Below the pieces are notes generated by a model. That model ran no database searches, was not told where the DNA came from, and saw only the letters and a list, made by a program, of their open reading frames with translations. Positions 19,467 to 40,020 of a DNA stretch of 64,000 bases are shown in pieces. The stretch is from Schmidtea polychroa (taxonomy: Eukaryota), in the NCBI GenBank assembly GCA_044892525.1, contig CM097885.1:217496001-217560000 (forward strand), in the 5' to 3' direction. Both the position numbers and the translations under genes were made by a program. The first letter of the stretch is position 1, and the number at the start of each line of letters is the position of its first letter.

Positions 19467-20219
19467 ATGTTATCAAACAACAAATCAGCTCTACGTCCCT
19501 GCTTCTCCTGCTCAGATAAAAATGCAGTGATTAAAGATCTTCAAGCCCAGATCGGTCGATATAAACGAAAAATCGACGAGCTGGAAGGGACATGGTTTAG
19601 TCCCGCTCGGATGAAGGAGATCCAAAAGAAGCTCGATCGTAGCGAGCATTGCCGGGACGCGCTAATATCTGAGAGCCGTGCCCAAAGAAGTCTAATCAGA
19701 GAACAATCCGAGGCACTGCATAAGGTTTACGTGCAGGCGGCTACAACCCGAAAAATTGTGCAGATTCCCATCCGAGAGGCCGATGACATCTTTCCGCCTC
19801 ATCACAACCTTTCCTCGAATCCATCTCCACCGTTCAAGAGACCGTGCCGAGACTGCGTCGAAACCGAATTTTCCCCCAAGCGACCAGATGTTGTCGTCAC
19901 GGGTACCAGTAAGCCCCCCAATGCTAGTCCATCTGTATCAGTCACCCTTCTGCAAGTGGCATCTTCAAGCAAACCCAAGCGCAAACAACTCTCTCGTGCG
20001 GAGCGCAAGAAGAGACAGCGCGAACGCGCCACTACCAAGCCAAACATCCCATCAATAGAGGACTCAACCAACGGTGGCAACTCTCACGTGTCCATCGACC
20101 TAACAACGGGACCCTCAGCGCGAATCATATCAGCCGCTGGCGTAACGTGGGAAGAGAACGCTTCCGAGTTTTTTAACCTCGACGAATTATTCGCCGACGC
20201 TGAATGGGAGAAACAATAA
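19467..20219 (+). CDS. LTR-encoded 250-aa protein of unknown function (CxxC, coiled coil, basic NLS-like tract, acidic C-terminus)
   Basis: Intact in both LTRs; homolog in the solo LTR. Preceded by a pyrimidine tract and AG (19456-19457); AATAAA at 20343. Confidence 0.8.
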   Translation: MLSNNKSALRPCFSCSDKNAVIKDLQAQIGRYKRKIDELEGTWFSPARMKEIQKKLDRSEHCRDALISESRAQRSLIREQSEALHKVYVQAATTRKIVQIPIREADDIFPPHHNLSSNPSPPFKRPCRDCVETEFSPKRPDVVVTGTSKPPNASPSVSVTLLQVASSSKPKRKQLSRAERKKRQRERATTKPNIPSIEDSTNGGNSHVSIDLTTGPSARIISAAGVTWEENASEFFNLDELFADAEWEKQ

Positions 20220-20760
20220 AACCCCAGTGGCGGTCAGGATGAAGAACAAGGATCCGATCTATGTTGATTATGATGTTTTCTCTTCTTTCGACAAACATTA
20301 GTAAAGTGTACAGCTGAATCCTTGTGTCATAACGTTGAAATTAATAAATCTTGTTGTCTTACACGTTTTCGCTCATGAATAACTAGACTTTAATTAAGTG
20401 GGTTGAGTAGAGAACCCGCCAGATCTAGTGAGAAATTCCCAATTTGTATTCAGCGAATCCTGATAAGTGGTTGTGTAAGGAAATGGACGTAAGCCCTTCT
20501 AACGGCAGTCGTGAATGGGAAGTCGAGGCCTCAGCAAGGAGTAGTTTTAAGGCAGAAGCTCACCTGCTTGTTGGCGTCTCGCCTGCATAGTGCAGTACCA
20601 ACGTGAAGTGATTCACGGGCACTATGTTGGAAGAAAGTTATGTGGGGTTTCACTCCAGGTTGACAAATCGGTGGCACCTTTTATTCGAGATGGACAATCA
20701 ACCCTTAGACCCGTCAACATGGTAGAGTGGTCAGCCGAGGTGTAACCCCAACATGATTTT

Positions 20761-20778
20761 TGGGGGCTCAGCCGGGAT
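20761..20778 (+). promoter_or_regulatory. Primer-binding site, tRNA-Pro type
   Basis: TGGGGGCTCAGCCGGGAT matches the classical tRNA-Pro PBS TGGGGGCTCGTCCGGGAT at 16/18 and starts 7 nt after the LTR end. Confidence 0.85.
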
Positions 20779-21091
20779 CTACAATCGATCGAAATTTCTA
20801 TTAACGAATGCGAAATTCACCGGGATTTTCATAAAAAATTAAAGGGATTTATCACATCGATTTTCTGTTTCCAACCGACCATTGCTTGACGAATGCAAAT
20901 TGACTATTGATTATTAACTTATATTAGGAACTAAGTAGAGAAAATCAAAATGTAGATAATAGAAAAATTAAGGATATAAATAAAGGAGATAAAGTAGTCA
21001 AATTAAATAATTAACAATGGTTAAAGAAACCAATTAACGAATTAACTATTAATTTACTACATATTATTAAAACATTACTTTTCCAACAGCT

Positions 21092-21577
21092 ATGACAGAA
21101 TTCGCGAACCAAATGCAACAACTGCTCAAGTTTATCGATATAGAAAACGACTCCCTAACAACACTGACGCATAAAAGAGAAAAAATCAACGCGATATTAC
21201 TGCAAGCAATCGGACAAACACCAGTCGTACCTAATCATATGATATTAGCCACAGGCCTAAGTCGCCCAGATGGAAAAATAAACCCCGAAACCGTATATCA
21301 GTGGTATCAAGAGAGATTGAACCACCCAACATTAAATCTAGATTATCAGCGTCTAAAAGACTCACTAAATACAATACCAGATGCAATCGAACAAAAAATA
21401 CAGGAAAAAATTAACCAATTACGAACTTGTATAGCCTGCAAACTCCGTCCTATTCGCGTATTATTCTTGCCGTGTGGACACCTCAGTCACTGTGAAGCGT
21501 GTGTAAAAGACCTAAAAAGATGCACGATGTGCAAATATGAAATAAAAGAGACCCATATGGTCTATTATGGCGAATGA
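21092..21577 (+). CDS. 161-aa protein with C-terminal IAP-type (C3HC4) RING finger, no BIR
   Basis: CIACKLRPIRVLFLPCGHLSHCEACVKDLKRCTMC at the extreme C-terminus. Acceptor ttttccaacag lies 2 nt before the ATG; AATAAA at 21682. Confidence 0.85.
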   Translation: MTEFANQMQQLLKFIDIENDSLTTLTHKREKINAILLQAIGQTPVVPNHMILATGLSRPDGKINPETVYQWYQERLNHPTLNLDYQRLKDSLNTIPDAIEQKIQEKINQLRTCIACKLRPIRVLFLPCGHLSHCEACVKDLKRCTMCKYEIKETHMVYYGE

Positions 21578-22669: not shown

Positions 22670-23979
22670 AGGCCTAGAAAAGCGAGAGATAGCAGTTAAG
22701 CTACAATGAGATAATATTTAAATTACTAGTGATATGGAATATTAAAGCTAGCTAGAACAAATTGAATGTAATTTTGAAAATTCGAGTTTAGAGAGGAAAT
22801 AAACGAGCTCGTGGAAAAGAAAATAGGATTATAATGAAAAAGGAAAGGGAAGAAGGAAACGAATTAAAGAGATAATAGAAAATAAAGAATAGATGAAACG
22901 ATGATAATGAGTAAAGAGGAAAGTAACTAACTAACTAAAGGGATCCCAGTGAAGTAGAGAAACTCTACGGAATATTTTTTTTTGGTTAAACCGGGAAAAT
23001 GCATTTTATTGGTTCCAGAGTAGAACCGAGCTTAATAATAGTGAATATGAAAAGTAAAATAGCGACAACAGCGCAAAAGGATTAGGAAAATGAAAGGGGG
23101 GTAATAAGCAGAGACCGACAACGACCTATTTTTACTATAATTGATAACGAATAGATAATTATTACGACTTTATAGATAATTGTTACTACCCCATATAGAT
23201 AATTTAAAATCGACGGAAAATACGGGCTGATGGGATATTATAAACCGCAGACAGGATTTCACAAAAGATAGGGGAAGCACAAACAGAAACCTAAAAGGTG
23301 TCTGTTTTTGAATGTTGTAGAAAGAATGATGAAGTCGTGTAAGCAAATGCAACACGAGATCATTTTTTCATTTTAGATATCAAGCCAATCCAGCCAACCA
23401 AGACAATCCAGAACCTGCACAAAAGGAATTCGAAGAAAATCGACAATCAACCAAGGATAAATCCATTCAGAACCCGCACCGAGAGACACAGCAACCGGAA
23501 GACTCCAGAACGGAAGAAGTATTAGCAGCCATCTGCCAAGGATTAGTAAATCTCCTCAGGATCTCAGTAGCAGATTCATACAGAATATTTATCGAAGGAA
23601 ACACAATCAGAACCGAACGCGTCCAATTCAATAGCCACTAATTACCAAGAAGCGTAAGAAAGGAATCACGGATAAACCCAATCTTAGATCTTCTAGTAAG
23701 CCAGGAGACGTATTATTTTCAGGAGACGAATTACAACAACTCAAGAGAGGACGATCCATTAAACATCAAAGAGGAATATCACAAGGATCCAGAAGAACCA
23801 ATCAAGTACCCATATTCGACCAAGAAAATCTCGGATATACCCCTAGTCGATCTCGAAGTAGAGAAAGTCTGTCCGATATCACTAATAGTTTAGCAACGTC
23901 AACCGAGGAATTATCAGCCCAAAGTTTAGTCACATCGTTAGACAATTTAAAAGAAACAGACGAACCTAGAACACCAATC

Positions 23980-26900
23980 ATGACGAATGTCGTAAAAACC
24001 GACGAGTATAAAGAGAAGTTCAGAGGAGAACCGTTCAACGGAAATGCAAACAAGCTAGCAACGTTCATAACTAATTTTGAAGTTTATATCACTGTGTGTG
24101 GATGGACACCCGAAGCAATTAGTAAAAGGATGCCGTTGTTTTTGTGCGATAGTGCATTAGAGGTATATTTAGAAGCTAAAGAGAGAGACACGAAATTAGA
24201 AAAGTGGGAAGATATTAAAACATTCCTGAAGAAAACCTTCGGAGCCAGTAAGCCAATCAACCAGGCGTTGGGCGAACTAGCAAATAGGAAACAAAGAGCA
24301 AACGAATCGATAACATTATATGCCAGTGAATTGCGGAGATTAGCGAAGAAAGCAATGAATGGAAAATTACCCGAAGAAAATCTGATCGGTTATTTCATAG
24401 AGGGATTACGCCGAGAAGAAGTAAGAGCCTCAGTAGGTTGTCAAATGTGCAAAACATTAGAGGAAGCCATAGATTGGGCTACAAGATGCGAGCTCCACCT
24501 TCCAGCTCAAATGAATCTTATGCAAGAGGAGGGAAGGATAGCGACAGCAATAGCGAAAGCGGATAACGGAGATAACAACAATCAAGAACCGAAAATGAAT
24601 CAATTTATACCAGGAGCGCACCAAATTTTCAAACCACCACAAGGACGATCAAACGGGAATAATGGTAATCGTAACAACCCGAATAATGAGAACAATTTCA
24701 ATAATCGGCGAAATATGAACGATAACAAGCAGTGCCGAACATGCGGTAAACCAGGACACTGGGACAGAGATTGTTATAGAAATTCAAATTGTAATCGTTG
24801 CGGACGGCGTGGACATACCGAAAATGTATGCCAATTGCGAGGCTGTTTTAACTGTGGTCAGCCAGGTCACATCTCCAGAGATTGCCGAGAAAGGGGCCAA
24901 CAACAACGACCACCACAGCGAAATAATAATTATATAGCGAATCCGCAACGACAAAGTAACCCTAACGAAGGAAAACAAATGAACGTTATGCAGGAAATTT
25001 CGCAGATGAAACAGATGATGCAACAAATGATGAGACCAAGACAAGAATCAGCACCACAACAAACCCAGAATATACGTATGATGAGGAGTACCGAAAATCT
25101 CAACAATTATGAAGTGCATCAACATGTACAAGAATGGCAAAGGCTACAGGCCGAGGAAGAGAGGATAAAACAAGAACGCAACCAACAACGACAAGAACAA
25201 CCATTGCGAATAAATATGATGAAGTTAGTAAAAGACATGAAGAGCCAGTATTGCTACAATTACGGGAAAAGCCCAAGGGTAGTACCCATGACTGAACCAG
25301 AAAAAGTAAAGGAAATAACAACGGAAATGAAAACAGAGAATTCAACCACGATTTCAAAAGGAAACCAGAGAATTCAGAAAATATTCTGGAAAAAGATAAA
25401 GGATAAAATCGAAAAAGAACATAATAAAGCGAAAACCGAGACAGAAGATGAAAATAACAAGAGCGAGGAACAAACCAGTCAACTAAATCACCAAATGCTA
25501 CAAGAATCAGAATCAGAAGAAACAACAATATTCGAAAGAAAGAAACTAAAGAGAGTACCAAGGATGAGAAACTTGCAAATCAATATGATGAAAAGGACAA
25601 AAGATGTAGCATCGTCAGACGAAGAAGAAGATTATGTAAGTAGTTTGGGTGGAGAAATACTACAGCCGAATGAAATAAGCGAACCCTCAAAAGGGGAAAT
25701 CAAAGAGGAAGAAAGCGGAAACGAGATAACCAGTGAAAGTGAAGACGAAGATATCGAAATAAAGTTGAGAAAAGCAAGGGAGGAAGCGATAAAACAGGTA
25801 GCCGAAATACTCCCAGTAGTAGTGAGGAACCAAGAGTTCATCGACGTAATACCATTCAGGCGATTCGTGCAAAAAGTGATGAAATTGGAAAGAAACGAGA
25901 AAGATCTAATACCAAACGAGGAAAAATCAATTATAAAAAATTATATGGAAAAAATGAAGCAGGCCGATACCACGCGGTATGTAATAAAAATTGGAACGAG
26001 TAGAGGACTTGAAAGAATGTGGATAAAAAATACAGTCACCGACGAACTTTTCGATTGGATACGAGAACATTTGGGAAGTTCGAGAAAGAAAGAATATCTG
26101 TATCAATACCAAGGAGAACAGATCAAACCAGATATGCACTTAGTAGATGCACTAATATGGCCAGGAGAAACGCAAATACTGAAGTTGCATAAAGAAAAAC
26201 AACTAGCCAACCTTTACGACTGGGCTAAAGATGCCAAGGCAGAATATGATTTTAATATCAAATTGAAATTAGAACAAATAAAACAATGTACTCTGAGACG
26301 AAACCTGGATAAGCTGATCAAACAAATTCAAGAACAAGTAGAAGACAACTGGGATTTACTCATCACCAGACGAGCCCCAGCCATGTACGAACTAATGAGC
26401 CGGTTGCGAGATACAGAAATGCTCCGAATGAGTGATTGGAGAACCATAAATTTGATCCACAAATATGGAAGGTTAAGAGAAACCCAGCCACAGAGGTTGG
26501 AAATAACCATATGGTTACCGAACGAAGAAAAACGACGAATAAAAATGAGCAATCAGAGTACAGTGGATGACTTGGTATCAAAAATAAACCAAGAGATAAC
26601 GGAAAAGGTACGTAGCGAAAGTAGTGATGGTATGGTGGATGATGTAGTCATGATGTACGATAAGATAATATTACGAGCGGAGGACGACACCTCGTTAAGC
26701 GAAATGGGTATGTGGGACAATCATCAGATAATCAGGATAGTACCAATGGATGAATTCCGAACAAGAGATGTAACATATCAAAAAGAAATACGAGACCGGA
26801 TGAAAACGTTGTATCAAAAATCTACAGAAATAATTGAAATCCACCAACAATGGTTAAAAGAAAAAGAGCTACAAGGAAAAATCACGAAATTAAATACCAG

Positions 26901-29900
26901 ATCCTGCAGACGAACCCCATGGGAAAGAGTGTGGAATGCAGAAAATAAGGAATGGGAAATCCGGAAAGGAATCTTCGTAGAAACAGACATTGGTGAGACA
27001 GAAAGTGAATCGGAGGAAGAAGAAGAGGAACCCCCAGAATATGAAGAGGAAGCAAGGGGACAGACATCAGATGACGAAAGCGAGACGGATGTCACATCAG
27101 AAAGCGAAAATGAAGCGAGACATATTCATGCAATGAGGAAAAAGGAACGTGAATATGCTGATATGGACGGCGAGGAAGCGACGGAAGCAAGAGAACGAGA
27201 AGAGAAAGAAAGATATAAACAATTAGGCGATATTTTAGCAATGGGAGCGAAAAATCAAAAACGCCAGGTAGTAGCGTTGGCTAATATCATCTTAAAAACA
27301 TCAGAGAATATCCACAATCTGAGAGGAATGGCAAAGGCAATAGAGGAATACCGGCAATATAATGAATGGTATCCAGAACAGCTAGAACAAATTATTCGAA
27401 AATGGAGAAATCAGGAATGGGCACAAGACACCCAGGAGAGGTATCACATCCGAATCAAGTATCCGGACAAGAGCATCGAGGAACTAGAGGTGCATCCAAC
27501 AACAAAAATTAGAGAATTAAAAAAGAAATTAGCATATGAAACTCCATTCCATCTGCAACTGTTCGGAAAATCACTAGACGATAATGCAGACGTCGGGATA
27601 ACACCCATGAGATTGGAAGAGACAAATGTGTTAACAATGGCAGAAACGTTGGGGAAACCGTTAAAAAGGAAAAGTAAAATTATTAAACCAACAAAAGGCA
27701 GTTTGAGTACTCCAAGTCCGAACAAAGCACCAAGTAAATCTAATGAAACTGAAGAAGTTGAAGAGATAATCCTGGAAGATAGTGACGATGAACCAGGAGA
27801 AAGATCACCGCTATTAGTGAGATGGCCGACAGGAGCCGAAATGTGGACTAATAACCAGCCATCAACGAGTTATCAACAACCAACGAAACTGAACATCGAA
27901 GAAATCATCGACAATACTACGGAAACCGAAACGGATGAACAATTCCAGAAGCAAAGAGAACCAACGAAAGTAACACCAGAAAGTCAAACCGACAAAATAA
28001 TAGACGAATGGAATGAGTGGCTAAGAAATAACGATAGCTCATTACCCAGAACGGATAACGAAAGAAATCCGAATTACGAAAATACCAGAGAAGCAGGAAC
28101 GATGATGGAAAAACGGGCAAAAGGAAGACCCAAGAAACAAGGAGAAAAGTCTGAGTTCAAAACCAAAGAACAATTAAAGCAAGAACAAGGGCAAGTTCGA
28201 TTAGAAAAATTGGATAAAATAGTATGGGATCTAAAGGAAGCCCAACCAACGATCGAAAGAGGAGAAAAATGGATACGAGAATTGTTAGAAGATATGTTAA
28301 TAATAACAAACCCACAACTTCGACGTTTGTGGCAACGGAAAGTAGCCAGTACGGAAGCTAGACAATTATGGCACACCATTTCGGGGATAATCCCAAAGTT
28401 AATCAAAGAGAAAACGAAAACCACCAAAACGGATTGGGACGAAACAAAGAGAGTGATTGAGCAGCTCACGACAAATGCAAATGATGACGAGCATCACCTA
28501 GTGGTAATCACTTATTTGATGTATAATTTGATGGGACTAGCTGCGAGGAAAATACCAAATAAACAGTTTGCAAATCATGTAGAAATGACCGTTTCAATCA
28601 TAGAGAATACTATTGAACCACACATTATTCGTGCAGGAGGATGGAAAAGACTGATACAAGCGCCACGGAAAAATGAGCAAGAAAGGTCGATGCAAGTTAG
28701 ATTGAAAAAACTGTTAAATGAACTAGAATGGGAACTACCGATGAAAGATCCCGCAAGCAGAAAAGCATCAATAAATTCGTTAATGATGACTATGATGATA
28801 TGGATGTTGTGCACAAGTGGAGCAACAGGTTTCACCATCTACGATTGTGATAACATGATAATGAGAGATAAATACTCATTGAGAGACATAGAAGAATGCA
28901 GACAAGCCTCACCCAACAAATTGGACATCGTGAGAACAAAAGTTACTTACCATGTATATCAAGAATCAGATTTCATCAGAACGCAAGCAAGGGAATGCGT
29001 AGTATCAAAAAAGGTACTCGCATATTACTGTGGACAATATTCGTATTCGACTCTTATACTACCTGGTCTGGATAAAGAAATCGTATCAATACAACGAGAG
29101 GATTGTAAAGAGCTATTTAGAACCGGAGCGCTAAAAATGCATAACGGAGTGACGATTCACGGACAAACTGGAATGATTAAAACCGAAAGTGTTTACGTAT
29201 CCGGAAAAGTAAAATCATCAGATGGGTCATGTAACGGAGGTACGTATACGATCCGAGGCGAGGTAATATCGGGAGTAGTAGTGATCGAGTCGTACACGGT
29301 CGAATTAAAAGAATACGAAGCGCAATTTGACGCAAATAATTATCAAATGAAGACCAACCCAGCGTGTAAAGCTACAGAAAACGTATGCAGGACAGGAGTA
29401 TCAACTATAATCTATGAAGCTAATACCCAAAAATGCCGACTCCAACTGTTAAAAAGTGCTTTGTTCAATGAAGTAAAAGGAGAAATATATGAGAACGAGA
29501 ACGACGAGGATGGAAACGACAGAGTGAGAATGCGAAATGGAAAACCAATGCCACCATCTCCCAGAGAAAAGAGACTTTCAACGCAGAAGACACCAACAGC
29601 ATTAATCACAGACGATCCAGATCTAGGTATGAGATTTATCAAAGAGAAAGAAACCACCAAATGTGACAGTATAGTATATAAAACCAATTACGCAGGCATC
29701 TATATGTCGAGACAAATAATCGATAGAGCAGTGGGAAAGATAGCAACGGAGGACGTAAAACTATACTTATATGCAAATAATAAAATGGATTTTCTATTTC
29801 ATCGCGGACAAACGACCTTGCAAAAAGTATATTACGATCTGATACAAAACGATTGTTCATTGAATAAAGAAATATTGAAAACAAAGCTAGCTATTGCGAT

Positions 29901-32900
29901 AACGCACCCAGATAACACGATGCCATCACTCCCATTACCAGATGGACACTTTGGTAGAATGGTAGGAGAAGTAATGTACACATACCAGTGTACCAAGACG
30001 TATGCACGAATGCCAGAAAAATCCATACTACCCGAAAAGAGATGTGCAAATGAATTAGAAATCCGTTATAAAGGACAAAATCGATTCGTCCAACCAGTCA
30101 CTAGAATTATGAATCCAGTGGGTTTCTACCCAAATCTCTTTAACTGTTCTAATGCATACGGACCTTTATATGAAAGGCCCGATGGGAAATGGATGATGTT
30201 ACCGGGAAAAACCATATCCGAGGAGCCCAAGAAATTTGGATTAATAGAACTCGCCACAGAGCTGGATTTCAAACCTATAGACGTGTCAAACGGTGGTATG
30301 TATTCCCCAGAAGATCTAGAAACAGCACGACTTAACGTACTCTTTCCAGCCAGACGAGAATCCATTTTGTCAAATATGGTTACAATAACGGGGGGAACAA
30401 ATTATCAATCAGGCCCGAATTACGAGCTGCTATTATCGCCAGACCATTTTCAACAGGCTACGTCAAACATGATGAAAGCAATGTGGGGAAGATTCTTAGT
30501 TTTTGGACAAATGATGGCCGGGATATTAGGGATCATACTCATAATTCAGATAGTCAGAGTAATACTAACACAAATGTTAGCTTGTTTCGATATATACAAG
30601 CGGGAAAAGAAAGTTAATTGGAAAATGATAGTAGGCTTCTTACCATTTTTAGCTAAGACCATGGTATTACATGGCCACTCAAAAGACATTCATCGGATAA
30701 AGCGATTGATTAAAATATTAACAAAGATTAAAGGAACCGACGAGGAAGTAGGCAGACGATTCCGGAAAGTAATGTACGATGAAGCAACAAGACGACAATT
30801 GAAAAAGAATAAGCCAAAATTCTTGGACCGATTTAGAAGCCAATCATCTAACAGCGATAGTGACGACGATGATAACGGGAACGATAAATGTCTTTATCCA
30901 AACAGAAACCCAAACGAAAAACCAATGGAAACGGCACCATATTGGGAAAAGGAAAAGACAAACACCTGGATCGCCAATGGAAGCTATATACCACCGGATA
31001 TCGTGGGACCACAAACAGCTTTGACCATGACACAAAATATGTATCCGCAATTACCGAGTCAACCCGGTATGCATTATATGCCAACACGACGTACCAAAAG
31101 TGTAGATCAAGCAGATGACGTAAGAACAATAGCAGCGATGAGTTTACCTGGAGGTCCAGCAGTAACAGTTATGATTCAAATCAATGGTAAAGAAACCAAT
31201 GCTATGATAGACACCGGAGCTAATGTATCAGCGATAGCGATTAATCAAATCCCCAGTAAACACTGGAAGGATATCGAATCAACAACAATTCACATCATAG
31301 CATGTAGTAAAGAAACAGTGGACGTGGTCGGAAGATGGTGGACTACATTGAGATACCAGGACAACGAAATTGAAACGTATTTGGCAGTAATACCAAAACT
31401 TAGCGTACCATGCATAATCGGAACGGATTTGATGCCAGAATTATTAAAAGAAGTCGTAATAGACTTAACAACTATGTGTCTAAAAGACAAAACCGGTAGA
31501 ATATGCAAAATGAATGCAGTAATCAGATGTCCAGAAAAAATAATAGTACCAGCAAAATCGCAGATGATTTGTCAGATAAAAGTGGATACGGGTATGGAAG
31601 GAGAAGTTATCTTTGAACCAAGCAAGTCATTCGAAAAGCGACGAGAATTACCACTCGCAAGAGAAATAATCACAATAAACCAAGAAGGAGTGATACCGCT
31701 CAACATCACGAATTTCGAAGAGGAAGACAAAATCATTTATGAGAACGAAAAATTGGGAAGATTGACCCCAATGATGGACATAGAATTACCGAAAGTGACC
31801 AACGAGATGATCAAAGATGATGAATTATGGACAATAGATAGTATGTTGTTGACGAATAATGAAAAGAAAAAATTACACCGATTGTTGGTAGAATATAAAG
31901 ATATATTCGCCATCTCAGACTTAGACTTGGGTACATGCGATGTTACCCTACATGCAATACCCCTCATAGATGAAACTCCAATTGCATTAAGACCATACAA
32001 GCTAGCAGAAATGCAAAAAGAAATAGCCGAAGCAGAAGTACAAAAGATGCTAGACGCAAAAGTAATCGAACCAAGTTGCTCACCCTGGCAATTCCCAGTG
32101 GTCATGGTGAAAAAGAAAGATGGCACCCAACGATTCTGTATCGATTATCGGAAGTTAAACGCAGTGACCAAGAGAGATACCTATCCATTGCCAGACATCA
32201 ATGAGATGTTATTGATGTTGCAAGGGGCAGCATATTTTACTTCTTTAGATCTAAAAAGTGGATACTGGCAGATTAAAGTCAAAGATGAGGACAAAGAGAA
32301 AACAGCTTTCACGTTGGGACGAGATCTATATCAATTCAGGAAAATGCCATTTGGACTGACCAACGCACCAGCATCATTTCAACGGTGTATGAACTTTGTC
32401 ACCCATGGAATCAAACAATGTATGGTATATATTGATGATTTACTAATCTATTCAGCGACATTTGAACAACATCTAGAAGATATCCGAAACGTATTTATTA
32501 GATTAAGACAGTGGAAACTCAAACTCAAACCATCAAAATGCGATTGGGCAAAGGAAAAAGTCACGTTTTTAGGACACATAGTGTCAGCTAAAGGAAAGGA
32601 GCCAGATCCAAGAAACATTGAGAAAATAAAAACATGTCCAGCACCGAAAACTGTCACCCAAGTTCAGGAATTTCTAGGATTATGCGGATACTATCGCAAA
32701 TTTATCAAAAATTATGCAGGAATTGCAAAACCAATCCAGGAATTAGTAAAGAAGGACATTTCGTTCTTATGGGGGAAGGAACAACAAGAGGCGTTTGAAA
32801 CGCTGAGAGACAAACTAATCGAAGCACCTATCCTCGTACACCCAGATTTTAAGAAGCCATTTCTATTGGCAACGGATGCAAGCGGGTACGCGGCAGGCGC

Positions 32901-35900
32901 GATTCTGGGACAATTGGACGATGAGGGAAAAGAGAGAGTAATCGGGTATTACAGTCGAACATTCAAAAAGCACGAAAAGAACTATTCGGTAACAGAACGA
33001 GAAGCATTGGCTATAATACAAGCTATCAAACACTTCCGATATTTACTATGGGGACATGAGATATGTATAACCACAGATCATCAACCATTAGTGTGGTTAG
33101 GGCAACATAAAGAAGCGTCCAGTAGACTGATGAGATGGGCCATGCAATTGCAAGAATACTCCCCATTTATAAAATTTAAAGCGGGAAGAGCAAATGCCAA
33201 CGCCGATTGTATGTCAAGATTTATTTTCCCAGATTTGGTGGATTCAGAAATGCAACGCATATGCTTGATAGTAGCGGAAGATTTGGATTTCTGTCAATTA
33301 CGAAAGGACCAACAAGAGGACGCGGAATTAAAACAAATTATCGATTATGTAAAAACCGGAAAGACAGATGTATATGCGAAAGACCAAAAATTAAAAGAAC
33401 ATATGGATAAACACCGACACCGATATATTATAGAGAAAGATTGGTTGCTGATAATGGATGGGGAAAAACGATTAATGTGTATACCGGAAAACCGACGAAA
33501 AGAGTTACTAACGCAATATCACGATGGGAGATTGGGAGGACATATGTCATCGAAAAAGACGTTAGCAAGAATGAAACAGAAATATTTTTGGCCTACGTTA
33601 ACTGAAGATGTAACCGAATGGGTAAAAAATTGTCTAACTTGTGCAACCAGGAAGAATACTGGATCGAAATGGAAAGCACCTTTAACGCCAATGCCAGTAC
33701 CAATAGAACCAATGACAATGATATCCATGGACGTAGTTGGTCCACTACCAGAGTCAGATAAAGGAAACGTTTACATTCTAGTGATCACAGACTTTCTTAC
33801 GAAATTCCCAGAAGCATTCGCGATGCCAGACCAAAAAGCTAAAACAATCGCAAAAATTTTGGTAGAAGAGATATGTTGCCGATATGGAACACCAAAACAG
33901 ATATTAACCGATCAGGGAACTAATTTTATGAGTGAGATAATGAGCGAAGTAACAAATTACTTCAAAATAGCAAAACTAAGAACATCTCCATACCACCCTC
34001 AAACCAATGGGATGACGGAAAGATTTAATGGAACACTTATACAAATGTTATCAAATTACGTCGATCGTCACCAACGAGATTGGGACGAATATATAAACCT
34101 ATGTCTTATGGCGTACAGAATGTCAATTCACGCATCAACGAAAATGAGCCCATTTAAATTAATGTACGGAAGAGAGTGCAACATGCCAATGGACCTGGAA
34201 TACCAACCACCGATATCGCAGTATATGGAGATCGATGATTATGTTACGAAATTCAAGGAAAGAATGCAAGAAATTTGGGAAACTGCGGGATTAAATATCA
34301 AGTTCTACCAGGAAAGTTATAAAGATTTACACGATCGAAAGAAAAACGTGAAGCAACATACGTTCCAAACAGGTGATTGGGTAATGATAGAAACCCCGGA
34401 ATTAATTCCAGGAACCACAAAAAAATTACAACGCAACGGAAAAGGACCATATGAGATCTTATTCGTAGGCGAAACTAATGTAAGAGTGAAATTGGTAAAT
34501 AACCCCTTTACCAGACCAATATACGTAAACGTGGCACGATGCAAATCAATTCCGAAAACAGCCACTAGTCAACCAGAAGGCCGTACATTAACCACACGTT
34601 CGCAAACCTACCGAATGAACATGATGCAACAACTCGCAGAACCGATCACTGGACGATTAGGTATCCAACCATCAGAAGCGGAAAAGATTGTAAAAGAGGT
34701 AAAAATTAGAATACCTGGATGGGCAAAAGATCGATTAGATTTCGAAATATTAGGAGGATTATTGACGATGATCGAGAACTATGCAAATAGAGAAAGGACA
34801 CACCCATTATTGCGAGTAGTCAAAAGCCAATGGCCAATATTATTTACAATAACAGATCACTACGGAGACACACCATTACACAAACTCATGAAAGTAGGTA
34901 ACAACGAGCAAATACTAGAAACAATAGAAGCATTTCACGACTGCAAGCGATCAACAGAACAAACAAACAACCAAGGTTACACACCATTAATGATAGCCGC
35001 AAACAGAGGCAAAACAAAAGACATTATAACCGCATTACTCGATACTGGATCGAAAATAACTACACAAGACCACGGGCGGAAAAACGCTCTACATCATGCT
35101 ATCGAAGGGAGAAGTACCGAGGCGTTCACGTCATTGATGGAACTACTATCATATGAGGACAATCGAGAAGTCGGAAACATGTATGATGGATTGTTAACAG
35201 CGATCAAAGAAAAACTGACGACAATTACCGGAATATTAATTACATGGAGAAATCCAATTCAAAACGATTATATGATCAACGTAAACGAAGCGTTCACGAG
35301 AGGAGAGAACACGCTGATGAGAGAAGCTATGAAAGGACATCATTTATTCGAAATTCCGAATCAATTACTAGAACGAGGGATAAAATTCACAAATCATAAA
35401 GACGAACAGTTAGCAAAAAAGCGAATCGACACATTCGAAGAATCCCTATTCCAATTTACTAACCAAGTACGAAATAAATATTGGGAAACGGTAAGTGTGT
35501 TATATATGATGGACACAATGAACAACATCCGCGAGAATTACCTGGATATTATCCAAATACTTACAGCAGAGGAACGAATCAATAATCCAAACGGAAAGAA
35601 AACGAAAATAAGGTATGAGAAATCCAGGGAATCAAAGTCAACAACGAACCAAACGGTCACAAACAACGTCATCGAAACCAAATCAATGAGTATAGATCAA
35701 GAGGCAATAATACGCAAAGCAAAAGAAGTGTTCTTTGAGGAAATGCTAGAGCTGCCAGACGAAATAATATTGTCCAAAATAATAAAAGCCGTACACACAT
35801 ACGCAAGAGATCAAACCACGGGTTTAGATATCGGGAAAATCAAAACCTTCTTGCCTCGAGCATTTACGATGGTAACGAAGGATTCCAGAACACCCCTACA

Positions 35901-37833
35901 ACAAGCAATACTAGCAGCGAAAGAAAATAGAGCAATAACGATCATGAGAATCCTTGGAGAGATGGGCGAGGAAACCAACACGAAAAATGAACAAGGTGAA
36001 ACCGCCATGATGTATGCAGCTATAACGAAAATACACCCAAAAACACTCCACATCCTACATCAATCAGGATCGAAACTAGACGAAAGGTCCAACGAAGGAA
36101 ATTCCACCTTGGACTGGGCAACCATACAGCCAAACTTAGAAATGATCAGATTTATTTGCAAAAATGCGACAAAAGAAGAAGTTGAAAATATGTGCAAAAA
36201 CACATCTCAGTTTCAATGGAATACGGTACGGAAAAATCTAGAAGCAATGAAATTATTATTAACCTGGAGAGTACCACAAAATAATAAATATGCGATAAAT
36301 GTAAACGAATTCTACGAAAACGGAGAAAATGCGATGGTAAAGAATACCCTAACTAAGGGGGGGACGCCTAAAATTATTTTAATAGTATTAAATAGAGAAG
36401 ACCTAAAATTCACGCAAAATCAGAACGAGCAACAGCGAATTGGGAAACATCGTCGTATGCAATTGAGAGAGTTAGTTAAAGAATGGAATAGAAAGAGACA
36501 TGCTGCAACGGGTAGAAAAGAGTTTGAATTCGAAGCAAAATTAGCAAGAAACAGAGTGCTAACAGCATATCGCAGATTATTGAACGATATAAATGTCGAG
36601 GACGACATTTTAAACGACAGCGGGGGAGATAAACACGATGACAATAACGGAAAAGGCCGAAAGGAGGATAAAGAGAAAAGAGAACCGGAGGAGGGTAAAC
36701 CGGAAAACAAGGATTCGGATACGAAAAGAGAGGGAAACAGCCCGGGAACTAAGACCAAAGAGGAAGAAAAATCGAATAATGGAAAACAGAGGGTATGCCT
36801 ACCTTTCACTAACAAAGAAATAGAGACAAATATGATATTAATGATAATTATGCTTACCATGATAGAGTTAGTAACAGCTCCTGGAGGGACGAGGACGATA
36901 AAAGAAACCAAAGAAGCGGAGAATCAAGATAGCAAAGAGGACGAACTAAAACAAGAAAAGAAAAAGCAAGCACAAGAGCAGCAGTGGGATTTAAAGGAAG
37001 AATGGGATTTAAAGGAAAGGTGTATACTAGGAAGATGCATGTCTAGAGCATATCAGAAACTAGTACTGATAAATGAGGACACAGAACCAATAACAGAAGT
37101 AAGAATACAAGAAGCATACCGAAACCGAGACGGGAAAAGAATAACGAACGTTAAAGGAAAAGAGGTACACCTAGGAAAAGGTGGCGAAGTAGTAATAACG
37201 CAGCTCCAACCAAGAAAAGAGCACAAAATCTGTATTTCAAGATTAGGACCGGGTGAGAGATGCCATCAATATGTGACGCAGCAGCAGCCCCCGAAGGAAT
37301 ATACGGTTTGTATCTGGAGGAATGAATCAAAAAGAGAATGCCGACGATACCCGGGGAAAAGAGGAAAGAAAAGAAAAAACCACGACGAAAAGAACGAAGG
37401 CGGAAAGCACAAGAAAACCGGCGAGGAAGCTCAGGACAACTATGTTTCGGAGGAAGAGATGGAAAAAATACAAAAGATGGCAAAGGAGGGTATGAACGAG
37501 GAAATAGCAAGAATACGGGAAATGATGAAAGGAAATGGCAAAAGAGGAAACGAGAAAGGCATAGAAGCGATATCAACATTAACGAACAAGGAGAAACCAG
37601 AGAATATAAGCGTGAAGCAGATGATGTGGATCAGTGGGATAATAATAACAGGGGCCTTCCTAATTATAACGGGGGGAACAATAAAAATAATTAAGGATAA
37701 ACGACATCGCGGAGAACTAGAAATGACCCGAATCAGAAACTTCCAACATCGAGTGAAACGACCAAGTGATATCAAACAAGGACAGTGGGTGGAGGCCTGG
37801 AACGTTCAGCGCCCTCCAAACTCACGTATATAG
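23980..37833 (+). CDS. gag-pol: 4,617-aa single-ORF polyprotein: Gag(CA,3xCCHC)-3xUbl-Bcl2-Env-PR-RT-RNaseH-IN-ANK-membrane domain
   Basis: Continuous ORF. Catalytic motifs intact: DTG (31210), YIDD (32428), RNase H TDAS/E/TDH, integrase HHCC and D,D,E. Confidence 0.97.
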   Translation: MTNVVKTDEYKEKFRGEPFNGNANKLATFITNFEVYITVCGWTPEAISKRMPLFLCDSALEVYLEAKERDTKLEKWEDIKTFLKKTFGASKPINQALGELANRKQRANESITLYASELRRLAKKAMNGKLPEENLIGYFIEGLRREEVRASVGCQMCKTLEEAIDWATRCELHLPAQMNLMQEEGRIATAIAKADNGDNNNQEPKMNQFIPGAHQIFKPPQGRSNGNNGNRNNPNNENNFNNRRNMNDNKQCRTCGKPGHWDRDCYRNSNCNRCGRRGHTENVCQLRGCFNCGQPGHISRDCRERGQQQRPPQRNNNYIANPQRQSNPNEGKQMNVMQEISQMKQMMQQMMRPRQESAPQQTQNIRMMRSTENLNNYEVHQHVQEWQRLQAEEERIKQERNQQRQEQPLRINMMKLVKDMKSQYCYNYGKSPRVVPMTEPEKVKEITTEMKTENSTTISKGNQRIQKIFWKKIKDKIEKEHNKAKTETEDENNKSEEQTSQLNHQMLQESESEETTIFERKKLKRVPRMRNLQINMMKRTKDVASSDEEEDYVSSLGGEILQPNEISEPSKGEIKEEESGNEITSESEDEDIEIKLRKAREEAIKQVAEILPVVVRNQEFIDVIPFRRFVQKVMKLERNEKDLIPNEEKSIIKNYMEKMKQADTTRYVIKIGTSRGLERMWIKNTVTDELFDWIREHLGSSRKKEYLYQYQGEQIKPDMHLVDALIWPGETQILKLHKEKQLANLYDWAKDAKAEYDFNIKLKLEQIKQCTLRRNLDKLIKQIQEQVEDNWDLLITRRAPAMYELMSRLRDTEMLRMSDWRTINLIHKYGRLRETQPQRLEITIWLPNEEKRRIKMSNQSTVDDLVSKINQEITEKVRSESSDGMVDDVVMMYDKIILRAEDDTSLSEMGMWDNHQIIRIVPMDEFRTRDVTYQKEIRDRMKTLYQKSTEIIEIHQQWLKEKELQGKITKLNTRSCRRTPWERVWNAENKEWEIRKGIFVETDIGETESESEEEEEEPPEYEEEARGQTSDDESETDVTSESENEARHIHAMRKKEREYADMDGEEATEAREREEKERYKQLGDILAMGAKNQKRQVVALANIILKTSENIHNLRGMAKAIEEYRQYNEWYPEQLEQIIRKWRNQEWAQDTQERYHIRIKYPDKSIEELEVHPTTKIRELKKKLAYETPFHLQLFGKSLDDNADVGITPMRLEETNVLTMAETLGKPLKRKSKIIKPTKGSLSTPSPNKAPSKSNETEEVEEIILEDSDDEPGERSPLLVRWPTGAEMWTNNQPSTSYQQPTKLNIEEIIDNTTETETDEQFQKQREPTKVTPESQTDKIIDEWNEWLRNNDSSLPRTDNERNPNYENTREAGTMMEKRAKGRPKKQGEKSEFKTKEQLKQEQGQVRLEKLDKIVWDLKEAQPTIERGEKWIRELLEDMLIITNPQLRRLWQRKVASTEARQLWHTISGIIPKLIKEKTKTTKTDWDETKRVIEQLTTNANDDEHHLVVITYLMYNLMGLAARKIPNKQFANHVEMTVSIIENTIEPHIIRAGGWKRLIQAPRKNEQERSMQVRLKKLLNELEWELPMKDPASRKASINSLMMTMMIWMLCTSGATGFTIYDCDNMIMRDKYSLRDIEECRQASPNKLDIVRTKVTYHVYQESDFIRTQARECVVSKKVLAYYCGQYSYSTLILPGLDKEIVSIQREDCKELFRTGALKMHNGVTIHGQTGMIKTESVYVSGKVKSSDGSCNGGTYTIRGEVISGVVVIESYTVELKEYEAQFDANNYQMKTNPACKATENVCRTGVSTIIYEANTQKCRLQLLKSALFNEVKGEIYENENDEDGNDRVRMRNGKPMPPSPREKRLSTQKTPTALITDDPDLGMRFIKEKETTKCDSIVYKTNYAGIYMSRQIIDRAVGKIATEDVKLYLYANNKMDFLFHRGQTTLQKVYYDLIQNDCSLNKEILKTKLAIAITHPDNTMPSLPLPDGHFGRMVGEVMYTYQCTKTYARMPEKSILPEKRCANELEIRYKGQNRFVQPVTRIMNPVGFYPNLFNCSNAYGPLYERPDGKWMMLPGKTISEEPKKFGLIELATELDFKPIDVSNGGMYSPEDLETARLNVLFPARRESILSNMVTITGGTNYQSGPNYELLLSPDHFQQATSNMMKAMWGRFLVFGQMMAGILGIILIIQIVRVILTQMLACFDIYKREKKVNWKMIVGFLPFLAKTMVLHGHSKDIHRIKRLIKILTKIKGTDEEVGRRFRKVMYDEATRRQLKKNKPKFLDRFRSQSSNSDSDDDDNGNDKCLYPNRNPNEKPMETAPYWEKEKTNTWIANGSYIPPDIVGPQTALTMTQNMYPQLPSQPGMHYMPTRRTKSVDQADDVRTIAAMSLPGGPAVTVMIQINGKETNAMIDTGANVSAIAINQIPSKHWKDIESTTIHIIACSKETVDVVGRWWTTLRYQDNEIETYLAVIPKLSVPCIIGTDLMPELLKEVVIDLTTMCLKDKTGRICKMNAVIRCPEKIIVPAKSQMICQIKVDTGMEGEVIFEPSKSFEKRRELPLAREIITINQEGVIPLNITNFEEEDKIIYENEKLGRLTPMMDIELPKVTNEMIKDDELWTIDSMLLTNNEKKKLHRLLVEYKDIFAISDLDLGTCDVTLHAIPLIDETPIALRPYKLAEMQKEIAEAEVQKMLDAKVIEPSCSPWQFPVVMVKKKDGTQRFCIDYRKLNAVTKRDTYPLPDINEMLLMLQGAAYFTSLDLKSGYWQIKVKDEDKEKTAFTLGRDLYQFRKMPFGLTNAPASFQRCMNFVTHGIKQCMVYIDDLLIYSATFEQHLEDIRNVFIRLRQWKLKLKPSKCDWAKEKVTFLGHIVSAKGKEPDPRNIEKIKTCPAPKTVTQVQEFLGLCGYYRKFIKNYAGIAKPIQELVKKDISFLWGKEQQEAFETLRDKLIEAPILVHPDFKKPFLLATDASGYAAGAILGQLDDEGKERVIGYYSRTFKKHEKNYSVTEREALAIIQAIKHFRYLLWGHEICITTDHQPLVWLGQHKEASSRLMRWAMQLQEYSPFIKFKAGRANANADCMSRFIFPDLVDSEMQRICLIVAEDLDFCQLRKDQQEDAELKQIIDYVKTGKTDVYAKDQKLKEHMDKHRHRYIIEKDWLLIMDGEKRLMCIPENRRKELLTQYHDGRLGGHMSSKKTLARMKQKYFWPTLTEDVTEWVKNCLTCATRKNTGSKWKAPLTPMPVPIEPMTMISMDVVGPLPESDKGNVYILVITDFLTKFPEAFAMPDQKAKTIAKILVEEICCRYGTPKQILTDQGTNFMSEIMSEVTNYFKIAKLRTSPYHPQTNGMTERFNGTLIQMLSNYVDRHQRDWDEYINLCLMAYRMSIHASTKMSPFKLMYGRECNMPMDLEYQPPISQYMEIDDYVTKFKERMQEIWETAGLNIKFYQESYKDLHDRKKNVKQHTFQTGDWVMIETPELIPGTTKKLQRNGKGPYEILFVGETNVRVKLVNNPFTRPIYVNVARCKSIPKTATSQPEGRTLTTRSQTYRMNMMQQLAEPITGRLGIQPSEAEKIVKEVKIRIPGWAKDRLDFEILGGLLTMIENYANRERTHPLLRVVKSQWPILFTITDHYGDTPLHKLMKVGNNEQILETIEAFHDCKRSTEQTNNQGYTPLMIAANRGKTKDIITALLDTGSKITTQDHGRKNALHHAIEGRSTEAFTSLMELLSYEDNREVGNMYDGLLTAIKEKLTTITGILITWRNPIQNDYMINVNEAFTRGENTLMREAMKGHHLFEIPNQLLERGIKFTNHKDEQLAKKRIDTFEESLFQFTNQVRNKYWETVSVLYMMDTMNNIRENYLDIIQILTAEERINNPNGKKTKIRYEKSRESKSTTNQTVTNNVIETKSMSIDQEAIIRKAKEVFFEEMLELPDEIILSKIIKAVHTYARDQTTGLDIGKIKTFLPRAFTMVTKDSRTPLQQAILAAKENRAITIMRILGEMGEETNTKNEQGETAMMYAAITKIHPKTLHILHQSGSKLDERSNEGNSTLDWATIQPNLEMIRFICKNATKEEVENMCKNTSQFQWNTVRKNLEAMKLLLTWRVPQNNKYAINVNEFYENGENAMVKNTLTKGGTPKIILIVLNREDLKFTQNQNEQQRIGKHRRMQLRELVKEWNRKRHAATGRKEFEFEAKLARNRVLTAYRRLLNDINVEDDILNDSGGDKHDDNNGKGRKEDKEKREPEEGKPENKDSDTKREGNSPGTKTKEEEKSNNGKQRVCLPFTNKEIETNMILMIIMLTMIELVTAPGGTRTIKETKEAENQDSKEDELKQEKKKQAQEQQWDLKEEWDLKERCILGRCMSRAYQKLVLINEDTEPITEVRIQEAYRNRDGKRITNVKGKEVHLGKGGEVVITQLQPRKEHKICISRLGPGERCHQYVTQQQPPKEYTVCIWRNESKRECRRYPGKRGKKRKNHDEKNEGGKHKKTGEEAQDNYVSEEEMEKIQKMAKEGMNEEIARIREMMKGNGKRGNEKGIEAISTLTNKEKPENISVKQMMWISGIIITGAFLIITGGTIKIIKDKRHRGELEMTRIRNFQHRVKRPSDIKQGQWVEAWNVQRPPNSRI
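24010..24885 (+). other. gag: Gag capsid plus three CCHC zinc knuckles
   Basis: Retrotransposon-gag-like block (QRANESITLYASEL...FIEGL) and CX2CX4HX4C x3 at 24733-24885. Confidence 0.92.
25975..27639 (+). other. Three putative ubiquitin-like domains (25975-26190, 26494-26745, 27439-27639)
   Basis: Each ~70-85 aa with the ubiquitin hydrophobic pattern. Example: IEELEVHPTTKIRELKKKL...LFGKSLDD vs ubiquitin ITLEVEPSDTIENVKAKI...FAGKQLED. Confidence 0.55.
28255..28665 (+). other. Bcl-2-like domain
   Basis: Helical region ending in BH2-like HIIRAGGWKRL (cf. WIQENGGWDTF). The BH1-position segment DEHHLVVITYL lacks NWGR. Confidence 0.65.
28780..30700 (+). other. env: Envelope glycoprotein of chuvirus (Jingchuvirales) G type, with internal signal peptide and C-terminal TM
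   Basis: Signal LMMTMMIWMLCTSGATG|F, then YDC..SLRDIEEC, YYCG, LQKVYYDLIQNDCSL, GEVMYTYQC, CANEL, GGMYSPEDL..LFP, then TM WGRFLVFGQMMAGILGIILII (30484-30588) and a second hydrophobic stretch. These motifs are colinear with chuvirus glycoproteins as I recall them. Confidence 0.85.
31165..34550 (+). other. pol: Pol: aspartic protease, reverse transcriptase, RNase H, integrase with GPY/F
   Basis: AMIDTGA...IIGTD; RFCIDYRKLN, LDLKSGYWQI, PFGLTNAPASFQR, YIDD; TDAS...TDHQPL; H-H-C-C, SMDVVGP, TDQG, NGMTERFN; GPY. Confidence 0.98.
34852..36420 (+). other. Two ankyrin-repeat modules C-terminal to integrase
   Basis: GDTPLH, GYTPLMIAA, NALHHA; then RTPLQQA, GETAMMYAA, GNSTLDWA. The two modules share the tail TWRxPxxNxYxINVNE..GEN, 340 aa apart. 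Confidence 0.85.
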
Positions 37834-38353: not shown

Positions 38354-38438
38354 ACCAAACCTAGCTTAAAATGTAAATAATTGTAAATAAAATATCGAAC
38401 CTGTATCGATAAGAACTACTTGTACATATAATTATAGA

Positions 38439-39827
38439 ATGGATAAACGACAAAGAGAAGAGTTCAGAGAGATTGTCGAGCAAGTCCGAAAATCTACAAC
38501 GATCAGAATACACAAACATGTTATGTGCGGAATATGTGAAAAGTTGTTAAAGGAACCTCACCAAACGCAATGTGGATGCCGAGCATGTAAAGAATGTATC
38601 AGTGAAGCAATAAAGAATAGACCACAGAGGTGCCCGGTGTGCAAAGAGACACTAATATCGAGTTTAGAAGACACTAACGAGGATAAAGCCGCAGTGAAAG
38701 ACATGTTAAACACCAACCTGGGATGCAAAAATGCCCCATGCGAATGGAAAGGAGTAATATGGAAGGTAGTACAACATATGGGAGAATGTATGTACAGAAT
38801 TGGCCAGTGTGAAAGGTGCCATAAAACCATTCGAGCAAGCGAAGAAAAAGAGCATCAAAGGCAGTGTGAGGAGAGATTGGAAAGATGTGAACACTGTGGA
38901 GAAATAGATACGTGGATAAATCTCACCCTCAAACATCACAATGTCCAAGAGGAGAGAGTATGTGCGGAGTTCAGTGGGGAATGCCCAAACGGATGTAACC
39001 AAGGGGAAATAATGAAGGTGGCACAGCATCTAAGGGAATGCGAAAAGAAAAGAATGACATGTGTACTAGGTAGATGGGGTTGTCAGAAATTACTACACCG
39101 AGGTGAGTTACCACATCATTTAGTAGAAAATGCTTCAACTCACGCAGAAATGTGGTCGACTGCGTTACGAGAAAGCGAAGAGAAAGTAAAACAAATGGAG
39201 ATAGAGATAACATCGTTGAAAGTGTTAGTCAAAGAACTACTAGAAGAAAGGGAAGCGTTCGAAGAAGCCCGAGCAAACATAAAGATGCAAATAAACCGAA
39301 TAGAAATCAGTAATAATCAGGCCAAGGAGCTACATCAGAAAATACGGGAAATAAATCTAAATGAGATAACCCCAACAGCACCCTACATATGGAAAATAAC
39401 GGGAGTAAAAGAAAGAATACGAAAAGCAAAAACCGGAGAAGAGACAAGAATAACAAGTCCTGCATTCCATTCTTGGAAAAATGGGTACAAAATGAAAATG
39501 AAGATATATCCCAACGGGGACGGAACCGGATTAGATACGCACTTTTCGATTTTCTTTCTATTATGTAAAGGAGAATACGACGAAATATTAGAATGGCCGT
39601 TCCAGGCAAAAATCGATATTACTCTGATGAACAACCAAAGTATACATGAGCAAAGCTTCAAAACAACGGGGAATCAAATAGCTTACCAGAGGCCCCTCAA
39701 CGAAGAAGGATCAGCAACAGGAGCACCTACGTTCATCTCACAACAAAGAGTAGAAGATATGGCGAGAAATGATACCATATATATCAAGATGACCGTGAGG
39801 AAAGAGGAGAAGGGTAGAACGGAGTAA
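38439..39827 (+). CDS. TRAF: Full-length TRAF homolog (RING, TRAF zinc fingers, coiled coil, MATH/TRAF-C)
   Basis: CGIC..L.EP.QT.CG.R.C..C..CPVC RING; repeated CxxC/HxxxC fingers; MATH motifs YIWKI, SPAF...GYKM...YPNGDG...HFSIFF...GEYDEILEWPF, GAPTFI, DTIYIK. Confidence 0.95.
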   Translation: MDKRQREEFREIVEQVRKSTTIRIHKHVMCGICEKLLKEPHQTQCGCRACKECISEAIKNRPQRCPVCKETLISSLEDTNEDKAAVKDMLNTNLGCKNAPCEWKGVIWKVVQHMGECMYRIGQCERCHKTIRASEEKEHQRQCEERLERCEHCGEIDTWINLTLKHHNVQEERVCAEFSGECPNGCNQGEIMKVAQHLRECEKKRMTCVLGRWGCQKLLHRGELPHHLVENASTHAEMWSTALRESEEKVKQMEIEITSLKVLVKELLEEREAFEEARANIKMQINRIEISNNQAKELHQKIREINLNEITPTAPYIWKITGVKERIRKAKTGEETRITSPAFHSWKNGYKMKMKIYPNGDGTGLDTHFSIFFLLCKGEYDEILEWPFQAKIDITLMNNQSIHEQSFKTTGNQIAYQRPLNEEGSATGAPTFISQQRVEDMARNDTIYIKMTVRKEEKGRTE

Positions 39828-40020
39828 CCAATCGAATAATGTGGTATATAATAATCTGTATATATCGGTGTATATAACCAATAAAATATTATATAATAAT
39901 AGTATGAAAACCCTAAATACGAAAACCCAAAAATGATGCGAAAATTCCCCAAGAAACAGTAAATAATGAATAAATTCCTTTTTCATAATAAAAAGATTAA
40001 TCGATGTCTATGATTTAGAG

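Follow-up and report, generated by a model that had tools for sequence, protein, structure and literature searches.

The window analyzed here, a stretch of 64,000 nucleotides from Schmidtea polychroa (contig CM097885.1 of assembly GCA_044892525.1, positions 217,496,001 to 217,560,000), contains an intact Ty3/Gypsy element that spans 30,449 bp from long terminal repeat (LTR) to LTR (16592-47040; Table 1). The LTRs differ at 2 positions (2 mismatches and 0 gaps over 4,162 nt), as in a very recent insertion, have TG..CA ends and are flanked by CCCG on both sides. These LTR ends and a target site duplication (TSD) within the range of 4-6 bp are those of Ty3/Gypsy elements, and the order Gag, protease (PR), reverse transcriptase (RT), RNase H (RH) and integrase (IN), with matches to RT_RNaseH, Integrase_H2C2 and rve, is of the Gypsy type. 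The BEL-specific domains Peptidase_A17 and DUF5641 were not among the 18 Pfam families matched in the window. A single open reading frame (ORF) encodes all these domains, and a predicted envelope glycoprotein (Env) lies within the same frame. An earlier interpretation from the DNA letters (the sequence-only reading) had described a block of ~640 aa with ordered Cys motifs between Gag and protease. We found all nine motifs in order in the one 4,732-codon frame: YDC at aa 1736 (nt 28840), EEC at 1753, YYCG at 1797, DCKEL at 1823, GSCNG at 1864, NDCSL at 2072, YQC at 2117, CANEL at 2137 and GGMYSPEDL at 2220. Order and frame were as described, but the block is not adjacent to its neighbors, as the stretch from the zinc knuckles to the signal segment before Env holds ~1,270 aa of cargo that is acidic and weakly resembles ubiquitin and Bcl-2, and a tail of ~190 aa follows its transmembrane segment (TM). 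We are fairly confident that the block is the env gene of an intact, recent, giant Ty3/Gypsy element of the Burro type, and that it encodes a predicted class III fusogen, likely threaded through the endoplasmic reticulum (ER) membrane and freed by host signal peptidase.

The Env block matched PF24664 (Monjiviricetes_fusion) with 245 bits against a cut-off of 27 (E 1.4e-72), much more than chance would give, and this profile had matches in 0 of 14 control genomes. A HMMER search with Env over 1.84 billion representatives identified 1,063 relatives, including the glycoprotein of Tacheng tick virus 4 (E 2e-37) and a Chuviridae glycoprotein (E 2e-33), whose Cys pattern is common to Env; the Jingchuvirales-type family proposed before was thus recovered. 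Of the 7,998 candidates (346-1,103 aa) in a word-index protein search with Env, none reached E 0.001, and a single-sequence search of the PDB was likewise without a match. When the Env family profile (127 sequences) was compared with the PDB, 34 of the 37 matches were herpesvirus glycoprotein B (gB), all weak (best E 0.008). The AlphaFold2 (AF2) model of the Env monomer had a predicted local distance difference test score (pLDDT) of 88.5 and a central helix of 48 residues. Foldseek returned herpesvirus gB in 37 of the 37 matches listed (best E 4.6e-14, TM-score 0.42 over 635 columns), and a VIA comparison of the model with gB gave a Z of 10.5 and a root-mean-square deviation (rmsd) of 7.4 with 388 residues aligned. 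Vesicular stomatitis virus G and GP64 were not among the Foldseek matches listed, from which no exclusion follows. Hence, model and profile both point to the class III fold claimed from the letters alone and, as a predicted fold, Env is almost certainly a herpes gB-like fusion protein of class III.

When searched against the genome, a 601-nt piece of the env DNA gave 302 candidates, and 40 of the 40 scored were 99-100% identical. With the C-terminal 299 aa as the query we obtained 429 candidates, 131 of which were scored; 60 of these have the 4,732-codon frame as well, which a stop interrupts in one, and at least 59 genomic copies, including the window's own, have the whole frame with no stop flagged. 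Because of these many near-identical and full-frame copies, the Gag-Env-Pol layout is a property of a replicating family. The genome contains 2,581 PF24664 candidates, belonging to more than one family. For the analysis of selection, 40 copies were picked from the list of the C-terminal search, 20 with the full frame and 20 mostly without it, and 33 of them cover the test stretch in one piece. Variants present in at least two copies were counted as shared and the others as private. Shared variants comprised 189 silent and 17 replacement changes in Env (pN/pS 0.02; private pN/pS 0.10), 65 and 10 in the Env tail (0.04; private 0.21) and 222 and 34 in PR-RT (0.04; private 0.18), with a Fisher p of 9e-6 for the selection test on the copies. 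All 14 ectodomain Cys were invariant, each being covered by 32-37 copies. Purifying selection acts on Env as a protein, and the constraint is at least as strong as on the enzymes. A viral sequence inserted in frame by chance in one copy, or an assembly artefact, would be suggested by the odd position of env and by nothing more; the genomic copy number, the intact frames, the purifying selection and a like layout in other families and in published work speak against it, and we reject this explanation, whose probability is vanishingly small.

The best matches of Env were other Env-protease polyproteins (E 1e-143 to 1e-56). Among the best 14 long matches that were scanned, the frame continues from Env into a protease in 11, RT is present as well in 5, and in 3 Env has Gag or CCHC motifs before it and a protease after it. 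We analyzed their relationship in a quick, unrooted Env tree of 61 rows, made up of 45 stand-alone proteins, picked in part randomly out of 92 with 600-720 aa, and 16 others. Thirteen polyprotein Envs formed one side of a branch (Shimodaira-Hasegawa-like approximate likelihood ratio test, SH-aLRT, 97); a separate group of 43 rows (98) contained the two named chuvirus rows as well as the BEL-linked protein P0054. This tree names no donor and fits an origin of the polyprotein Envs separate from the BEL/Pao capture. As these Envs stand on a branch of their own, the chuvirus source suggested by the sequence-only reading is only putative. That this Gypsy family recently captured a chuvirus glycoprotein, within its own lineage, would agree with the matches to named chuvirus glycoproteins and the Cys pattern in common, but we regard it as very improbable: the polyproteins are far better matches and branch apart from the chuvirus rows, Env and RT trees of seven elements agree on their one fully supported split, and gB-type env occurs across cnidarians, ctenophores, tunicates and others, for which an ancient association has been argued (Chary and Hayashi 2026, PMC13524379). 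The comparison of Env with RT-RH trees (seven elements, unnamed relatives), a check suggested at the outset, had a mixed outcome, with one split of 100/100 support in common and moderately supported inner branches that differ. Among the relatives we also observed two or three protease-like domains in tandem after Env in P0001-P0004, with a further protease-like stretch after the integrase in P0001; an Env-PR-RT-IN polyprotein, P0006 (HBK71150.1), filed under a Flavobacteriaceae metagenome-assembled genome, likely by animal contamination of the bin; and a PF24664 glycoprotein fused behind three immunoglobulin domains (P0138).

Both the position of env and its gB class are already published, and the element is a further member of known groups, contrary to the novelty first supposed. 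For planarian Burro, whose cargo includes ubiquitin-like and Bcl-2-like domains, an env that lies between gag and pol in the same frame was described in 2019 (Arkhipova and Yushenova, PMC6431247). Layout and cargo of Burro/GYPSM1 (Grohme 2018 and Jurka 2007, as cited there) match our element, a likeness by description and not by sequence: the whole length is above 30 kb and the LTRs measure several kb (30,449 bp and 4,162 nt), one polyprotein of ~4,700-5,100 aa has env between a BCL2-like domain (here below the cut-off) and the protease, and the cargo includes ankyrin and MATH/TRAF above the Pfam cut-off and a weak ubiquitin-like part. BIR and dUTPase-like domains had no Pfam match in the window; the Burro paper used HHpred. 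In contrast to Burro as described there, our element has TRAF downstream of the polyprotein in an ORF of its own, with a RING ORF upstream and no detected BIR. The same paper related Burro env to the Env of gypsy as well as to proteins of baculoviruses, retroviruses and paramyxoviruses, whereas the predicted fold here is class III, and its accessible text does not discuss membrane topology or a second surface protein for Burro. Burro RNA rises in planarians after piwi knockdown, according to PMC8532177.

According to the available parts of PMC13524379, Ty3/gypsy elements from nematodes, bryozoans and flatworms have the order GAG-ENV-POL and no Env other than the gB type, elements of this order do not form one clade, and in 114 elements of arthropods gypsy pol has a chuvirus-like glycoprotein beside it. 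Six elements of Schmidtea, Smed_errantivirus_1-6, are given as ENV_HSV in the supplement and resemble ours in Ty3/gypsy Pol, a gB-type Env between gag and pol, multiple copies in a planarian and the Cys pattern of domains I-II. Smed_errantivirus_5 is closest, with a gapless domain I-II and 102 of 189 positions identical (~54%, counted by eye), and Env is identical to none of the six listed domain I-II sequences. This family likeness alone would point to a planarian as the likely host. In the main text 'polyprotein' and 'Burro' occur 0 times and no LTR or primer-binding site is given for the six, but some elements there have an ectodomain flanked by two TM domains, which partly anticipates the topology below. 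Nematode gag-env-pol metaviruses likewise have env before pol in Ty3/gypsy (Sacco et al. 2022, as cited in PMC13524379). Chuvirus glycoproteins and the BEL/Pao capture Anakin (PMC7642597, PMC10084718, as far as their accessible text goes) share PF24664, Cys pattern, size and a C-terminal TM with Env, but are ~20-27% identical, form a separate branch and are stand-alone ORFs or lie downstream of BEL pol. What appears to be new is limited to the predicted assembly model and the second surface protein. A literature search, outside which lay subscription journals, Repbase and figures, found no description of the topology or second surface protein of such elements, nor of particles or an anti-apoptotic role for them, beyond what PMC6431247 and PMC13524379 contain.

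We scanned the 4,732 residues for hydrophobicity with our own version of a Hessa-type scale, and four segments stood well apart from the rest of the ORF: aa 1715-1732, 2293-2311, 4398-4414 and 4663-4681. The first two are the predicted counterparts of the internal signal peptide and C-terminal TM that had been read from the letters. Signal segment 1 ends A-T-G and is followed by F-T-I-Y-D-C; a hydrophobic segment unrelated in sequence precedes YDC in 10 of the 11 relatives spanning the region. One TM after the ectodomain passed the threshold in 12 of 13 relatives, and the weakly hydrophobic stretch of the Env tail (30613-30669) did so in 0 of 13. Basic residues follow both the Env TM and the C-terminal TM. 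Scan and conservation in relatives are thus consistent with the cytosol-lumen-cytosol path proposed for Env. Glycosylation would be a weak test of translocation, because the ectodomain has a single N-glycosylation sequon (N2170). The other two segments delimit a predicted second luminal excursion at the C-terminus, which the sequence-only reading had missed. A signal-like segment paired with a TM after the integrase is also present in P0001, P0006, P0014 and a second family of this genome (L060), and the C-terminal domains of the window, P0001, P0006 and L060 had no significant BLAST similarity between the four. A single-sequence PDB search with the luminal part gave no match, and a single-sequence AF2 prediction had a pLDDT of 37. 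By eye, FN3-like motifs (L-x-P-x-x-x-Y/H) can be seen in all four domains; an FN3 fold is unconfirmed, with no Pfam match above the cut-off (best Pur_ac_phosph_N, E 0.07, in P0001) and no Atlas match. Overall, the hydrophobicity profile suggests that the 4,732-aa chain probably crosses the membrane four times, with Env and the second C-terminal domain as luminal excursions.

Several points weigh against a gB-like Env threaded through the membrane in a Burro-type polyprotein. The TM-score to gB is modest and the rmsd high, and one fusion-loop-like tip is hydrophobic (CGQYSY) while the second candidate loop is polar. The Bcl-2 and ubiquitin-like (UBL) assignments fall below the Pfam cut-offs; at the place corresponding to the former, the relative P0005 has a Bcl-2 match with E 0.00096. 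The topology is based on our own scan rather than on SignalP or DeepTMHMM, and signal segment 1 is the weakest of the four. In P0015, P0016 and the second family (L059) there is an extra hydrophobic segment upstream of the signal segment, and if it spans the membrane, the in/out parity would no longer hold; the extra segment of L059 is aligned to the core of the Bcl-2-like domain.

In the model that we propose, a cytosolic part with Gag, UBL and Bcl-2-like domains would be followed by signal segment 1, the luminal Env and its TM, and then by a cytosolic tail-PR-RT-RH-IN-ankyrin part, signal segment 2, the second luminal domain and the last TM. A signal peptidase cut at 1732/1733 would separate Gag from the Env-Pol chain. 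The Gag-UBL-Bcl-2 piece would stay anchored by signal segment 1, and Pol would hang from the Env tail; in Bcl-2 proteins the membrane anchor is the C-terminal helix. Env, rather than Gag, would bring Pol to budding particles, and Env trimers would cluster the proteases, after which the viral protease would free the cytosolic proteins. We consider the chances evenly balanced that cleavage after signal segment 1, anchored Gag-Bcl-2, Env-borne Pol, and protease clustering and release are jointly correct. If Pol rides on Env, even spread confined to one cell would require Env, and the strong selection on Env would be accounted for. A 1:1 ratio of Env, Gag and Pol may be possible only at synthesis, and equal synthesis need not give equal amounts; single-ORF elements such as Tf1 degrade excess Pol. 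In flavivirus-type polyproteins cytosolic and luminal parts alternate and are cut by signal peptidase and a viral protease. The likeness to our element, whose topology is predicted, is an analogy only, between unrelated proteins.

Alternatively, most Env could come from a spliced or subgenomic RNA that begins at a Met shortly upstream of the signal segment, with a Gag-Pol RNA that skips env, in which case the ORF would impose neither topology nor a 1:1 ratio. Spliced env RNAs are the rule in retroviruses and in Drosophila gypsy, and several Met codons are located in and just upstream of the signal segment. We think this explanation improbable, as the frame is continuous across both Env junctions in 59 copies and in distant relatives, which would be needless if the parts were spliced apart, and purifying selection also acts on the stretch that joins the TM to the protease (shared pN/pS as given for the tail). 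None of the 15 of 33 joints listed, from contigs of four runs of unknown or guessed kind, leads into Env, which is not evidence.

Returning to an Env translocated as part of the polyprotein, the particles may be enveloped and move from cell to cell, such as out of somatic cells into stem or germ cells, a possibility to which we give somewhat less than an even chance. Env might instead be translocated and essential only as a scaffold and Pol carrier, with budding at the ER, retrotransposition within the same cell and non-infectious particles. This is rather unlikely in our view. Selection on Env as strong as on PR-RT is expected if Pol packaging needs Env whether or not particles exit, only one fusion-loop tip is hydrophobic and the literature search found no particle report; against this, the gB-like architecture is preserved in full, the 14 Cys are all conserved, the family has retained a second predicted surface protein, and an ER-budded particle would need fusion to regain the cytosol anyway. 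The most far-reaching proposal, that Burro-type elements are infectious enveloped metaviruses with a flavivirus-like plan of four ER crossings, anchored Gag-Bcl-2, a Pol-carrying gB-like fusogen and a C-terminal attachment partner, we regard as quite doubtful; if true, it would describe a two-glycoprotein entry machine without precedent among reverse-transcribing elements. Packaging of Pol through Env, with the second surface protein acting in entry, would if true be a new assembly route for such elements. The predictions make it a testable question how a Gag-Env-Pol chain assembles a particle if signal peptidase cuts Gag from Pol. A young family in which at least 59 frames are intact and Env and RT are equally constrained is a good natural system for studying processing, particles and cell-to-cell spread, for which host animals whose stem cells carry the germline provide the setting.

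Table 1. Features of the giant Ty3/Gypsy element in the 64,000-nt window
Feature	Position	Strand	Evidence or remark
Left TSD copy (CCCG, 4 bp)	16588..16591	+	identical four bases at 47041-47044
5' LTR, 4,162 nt, TG...CA	16592..20753	+	99.95% identical to 3' LTR
253-codon ORF within 5' LTR	19458..20219	+	candidate ORF only; second copy in 3' LTR at 45745-46506
Likely primer-binding site, just inside 5' LTR	20761..20778	+	sequence position
Accessory ORF, 168 codons, C-terminal RING finger	21071..21577	+	zf-C3HC4_3 E 7e-11
Polyprotein ORF, single, 4,732 codons, no stop	23635..37833	+	likely start Met116 at 23980
Gag: capsid domain and three CCHC knuckles	23980..24954	+	Retrotrans_gag E 3e-9, zf-CCHC E 9e-10; three knuckles read from sequence
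Two candidate ubiquitin-like domains in acidic spacer	26500..27654	+	PI3K_rbd E 0.03, RA_2 E 0.03, ubiquitin E 0.2, all below cut-off
Candidate Bcl-2-like domain (BH1-BH2 part)	28429..28644	+	Bcl-2 E 0.034, below cut-off
Internal signal-like hydrophobic segment, aa 1715-1732	28777..28830	+	ends A-T-G before ectodomain; predicted signal peptidase site and anchor of upstream Bcl-2-like product
Class III (gB-like, PF24664) Env ectodomain, predicted, 560 aa, 14 Cys	28831..30510	+	profile, HMMER, fold, selection
Env transmembrane segment, predicted, aa 2293-2311	30511..30567	+	strongest Kyte-Doolittle peak
Env cytosolic tail (predicted) and linker to protease, ~190 aa	30568..31149	+	conserved weakly hydrophobic stretch at 30613-30669
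Aspartic protease (DTG)	31168..31443	+	RVP E 4e-8
Reverse transcriptase (YIDD) and RNase H	32107..33159	+	RVT_1 E 1e-35, RT_RNaseH E 7e-39
Integrase (H2C2 and core)	33481..33999	+	Integrase_H2C2 E 4e-20, rve E 3e-12
Ankyrin repeats	34903..36153	+	Ank_2 E 1e-20
Predicted second type I membrane protein	36826..37677	+	signal-like 36826-36876, luminal part with 2 sequons, TM 37621-37677, then basic tail
Accessory TRAF-like ORF (RING, zinc fingers, MATH)	38391..39827	+	TRAF-mep_MATH E 2e-27, RING E 1e-4
Three more accessory ORFs, two coiled-coil-like, one of 222 aa with signal-like and TM-like stretches	39970..42653	+	ORF scan
3' LTR, 4,162 nt	42879..47040	+	paired with 5' LTR
Right TSD copy (CCCG)	47041..47044	+	matches 16588..16591

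Of the accessory ORFs, the one upstream of the polyprotein has a RING that is presumably of the IAP type. The three ORFs next to the 3' LTR had no Pfam match above the cut-off; the one of 222 aa (41985-42653) opens with a signal-like sequence, contains three Cys in a coiled-coil-like part as well as a TM-like stretch, and is a possible third surface protein. Judged by their domains, the RING and TRAF-like ORFs, together with the Bcl-2-like and ankyrin parts of the polyprotein, suggest that the element may interfere with cell death and innate signalling. Within the polyprotein, the motif [IM]N[MLVA]M occurs near domain borders at 24511, 24979, 25210, 25579 and 34615 (5 seen versus 0.26 expected). 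As a protease site it is a candidate only, since the motif was devised post hoc and the domain borders of the second family lack it; that the Env lumen has none carries no statistical significance.

The likely primer-binding site may resemble the 3' end of tRNA-Pro. The 253-codon ORF sits in the GC-richer part of each LTR and had no Pfam match above the cut-off. Upstream of gag, the leader contains a tandem array of six ~74-nt units (22180-22669), and two contigs of run X3, of unknown kind, skip 52 nt with GT..AG ends (23545-23598), a weak observation that possibly reflects a small intron. Some genomic copies lie ~26.2-26.3 kb apart (C4:69867896/69894180, C2:177697679/177723891 and C4:46254649/46280830); this spacing equals one internal region plus one LTR, which suggests tandem elements with a common LTR.

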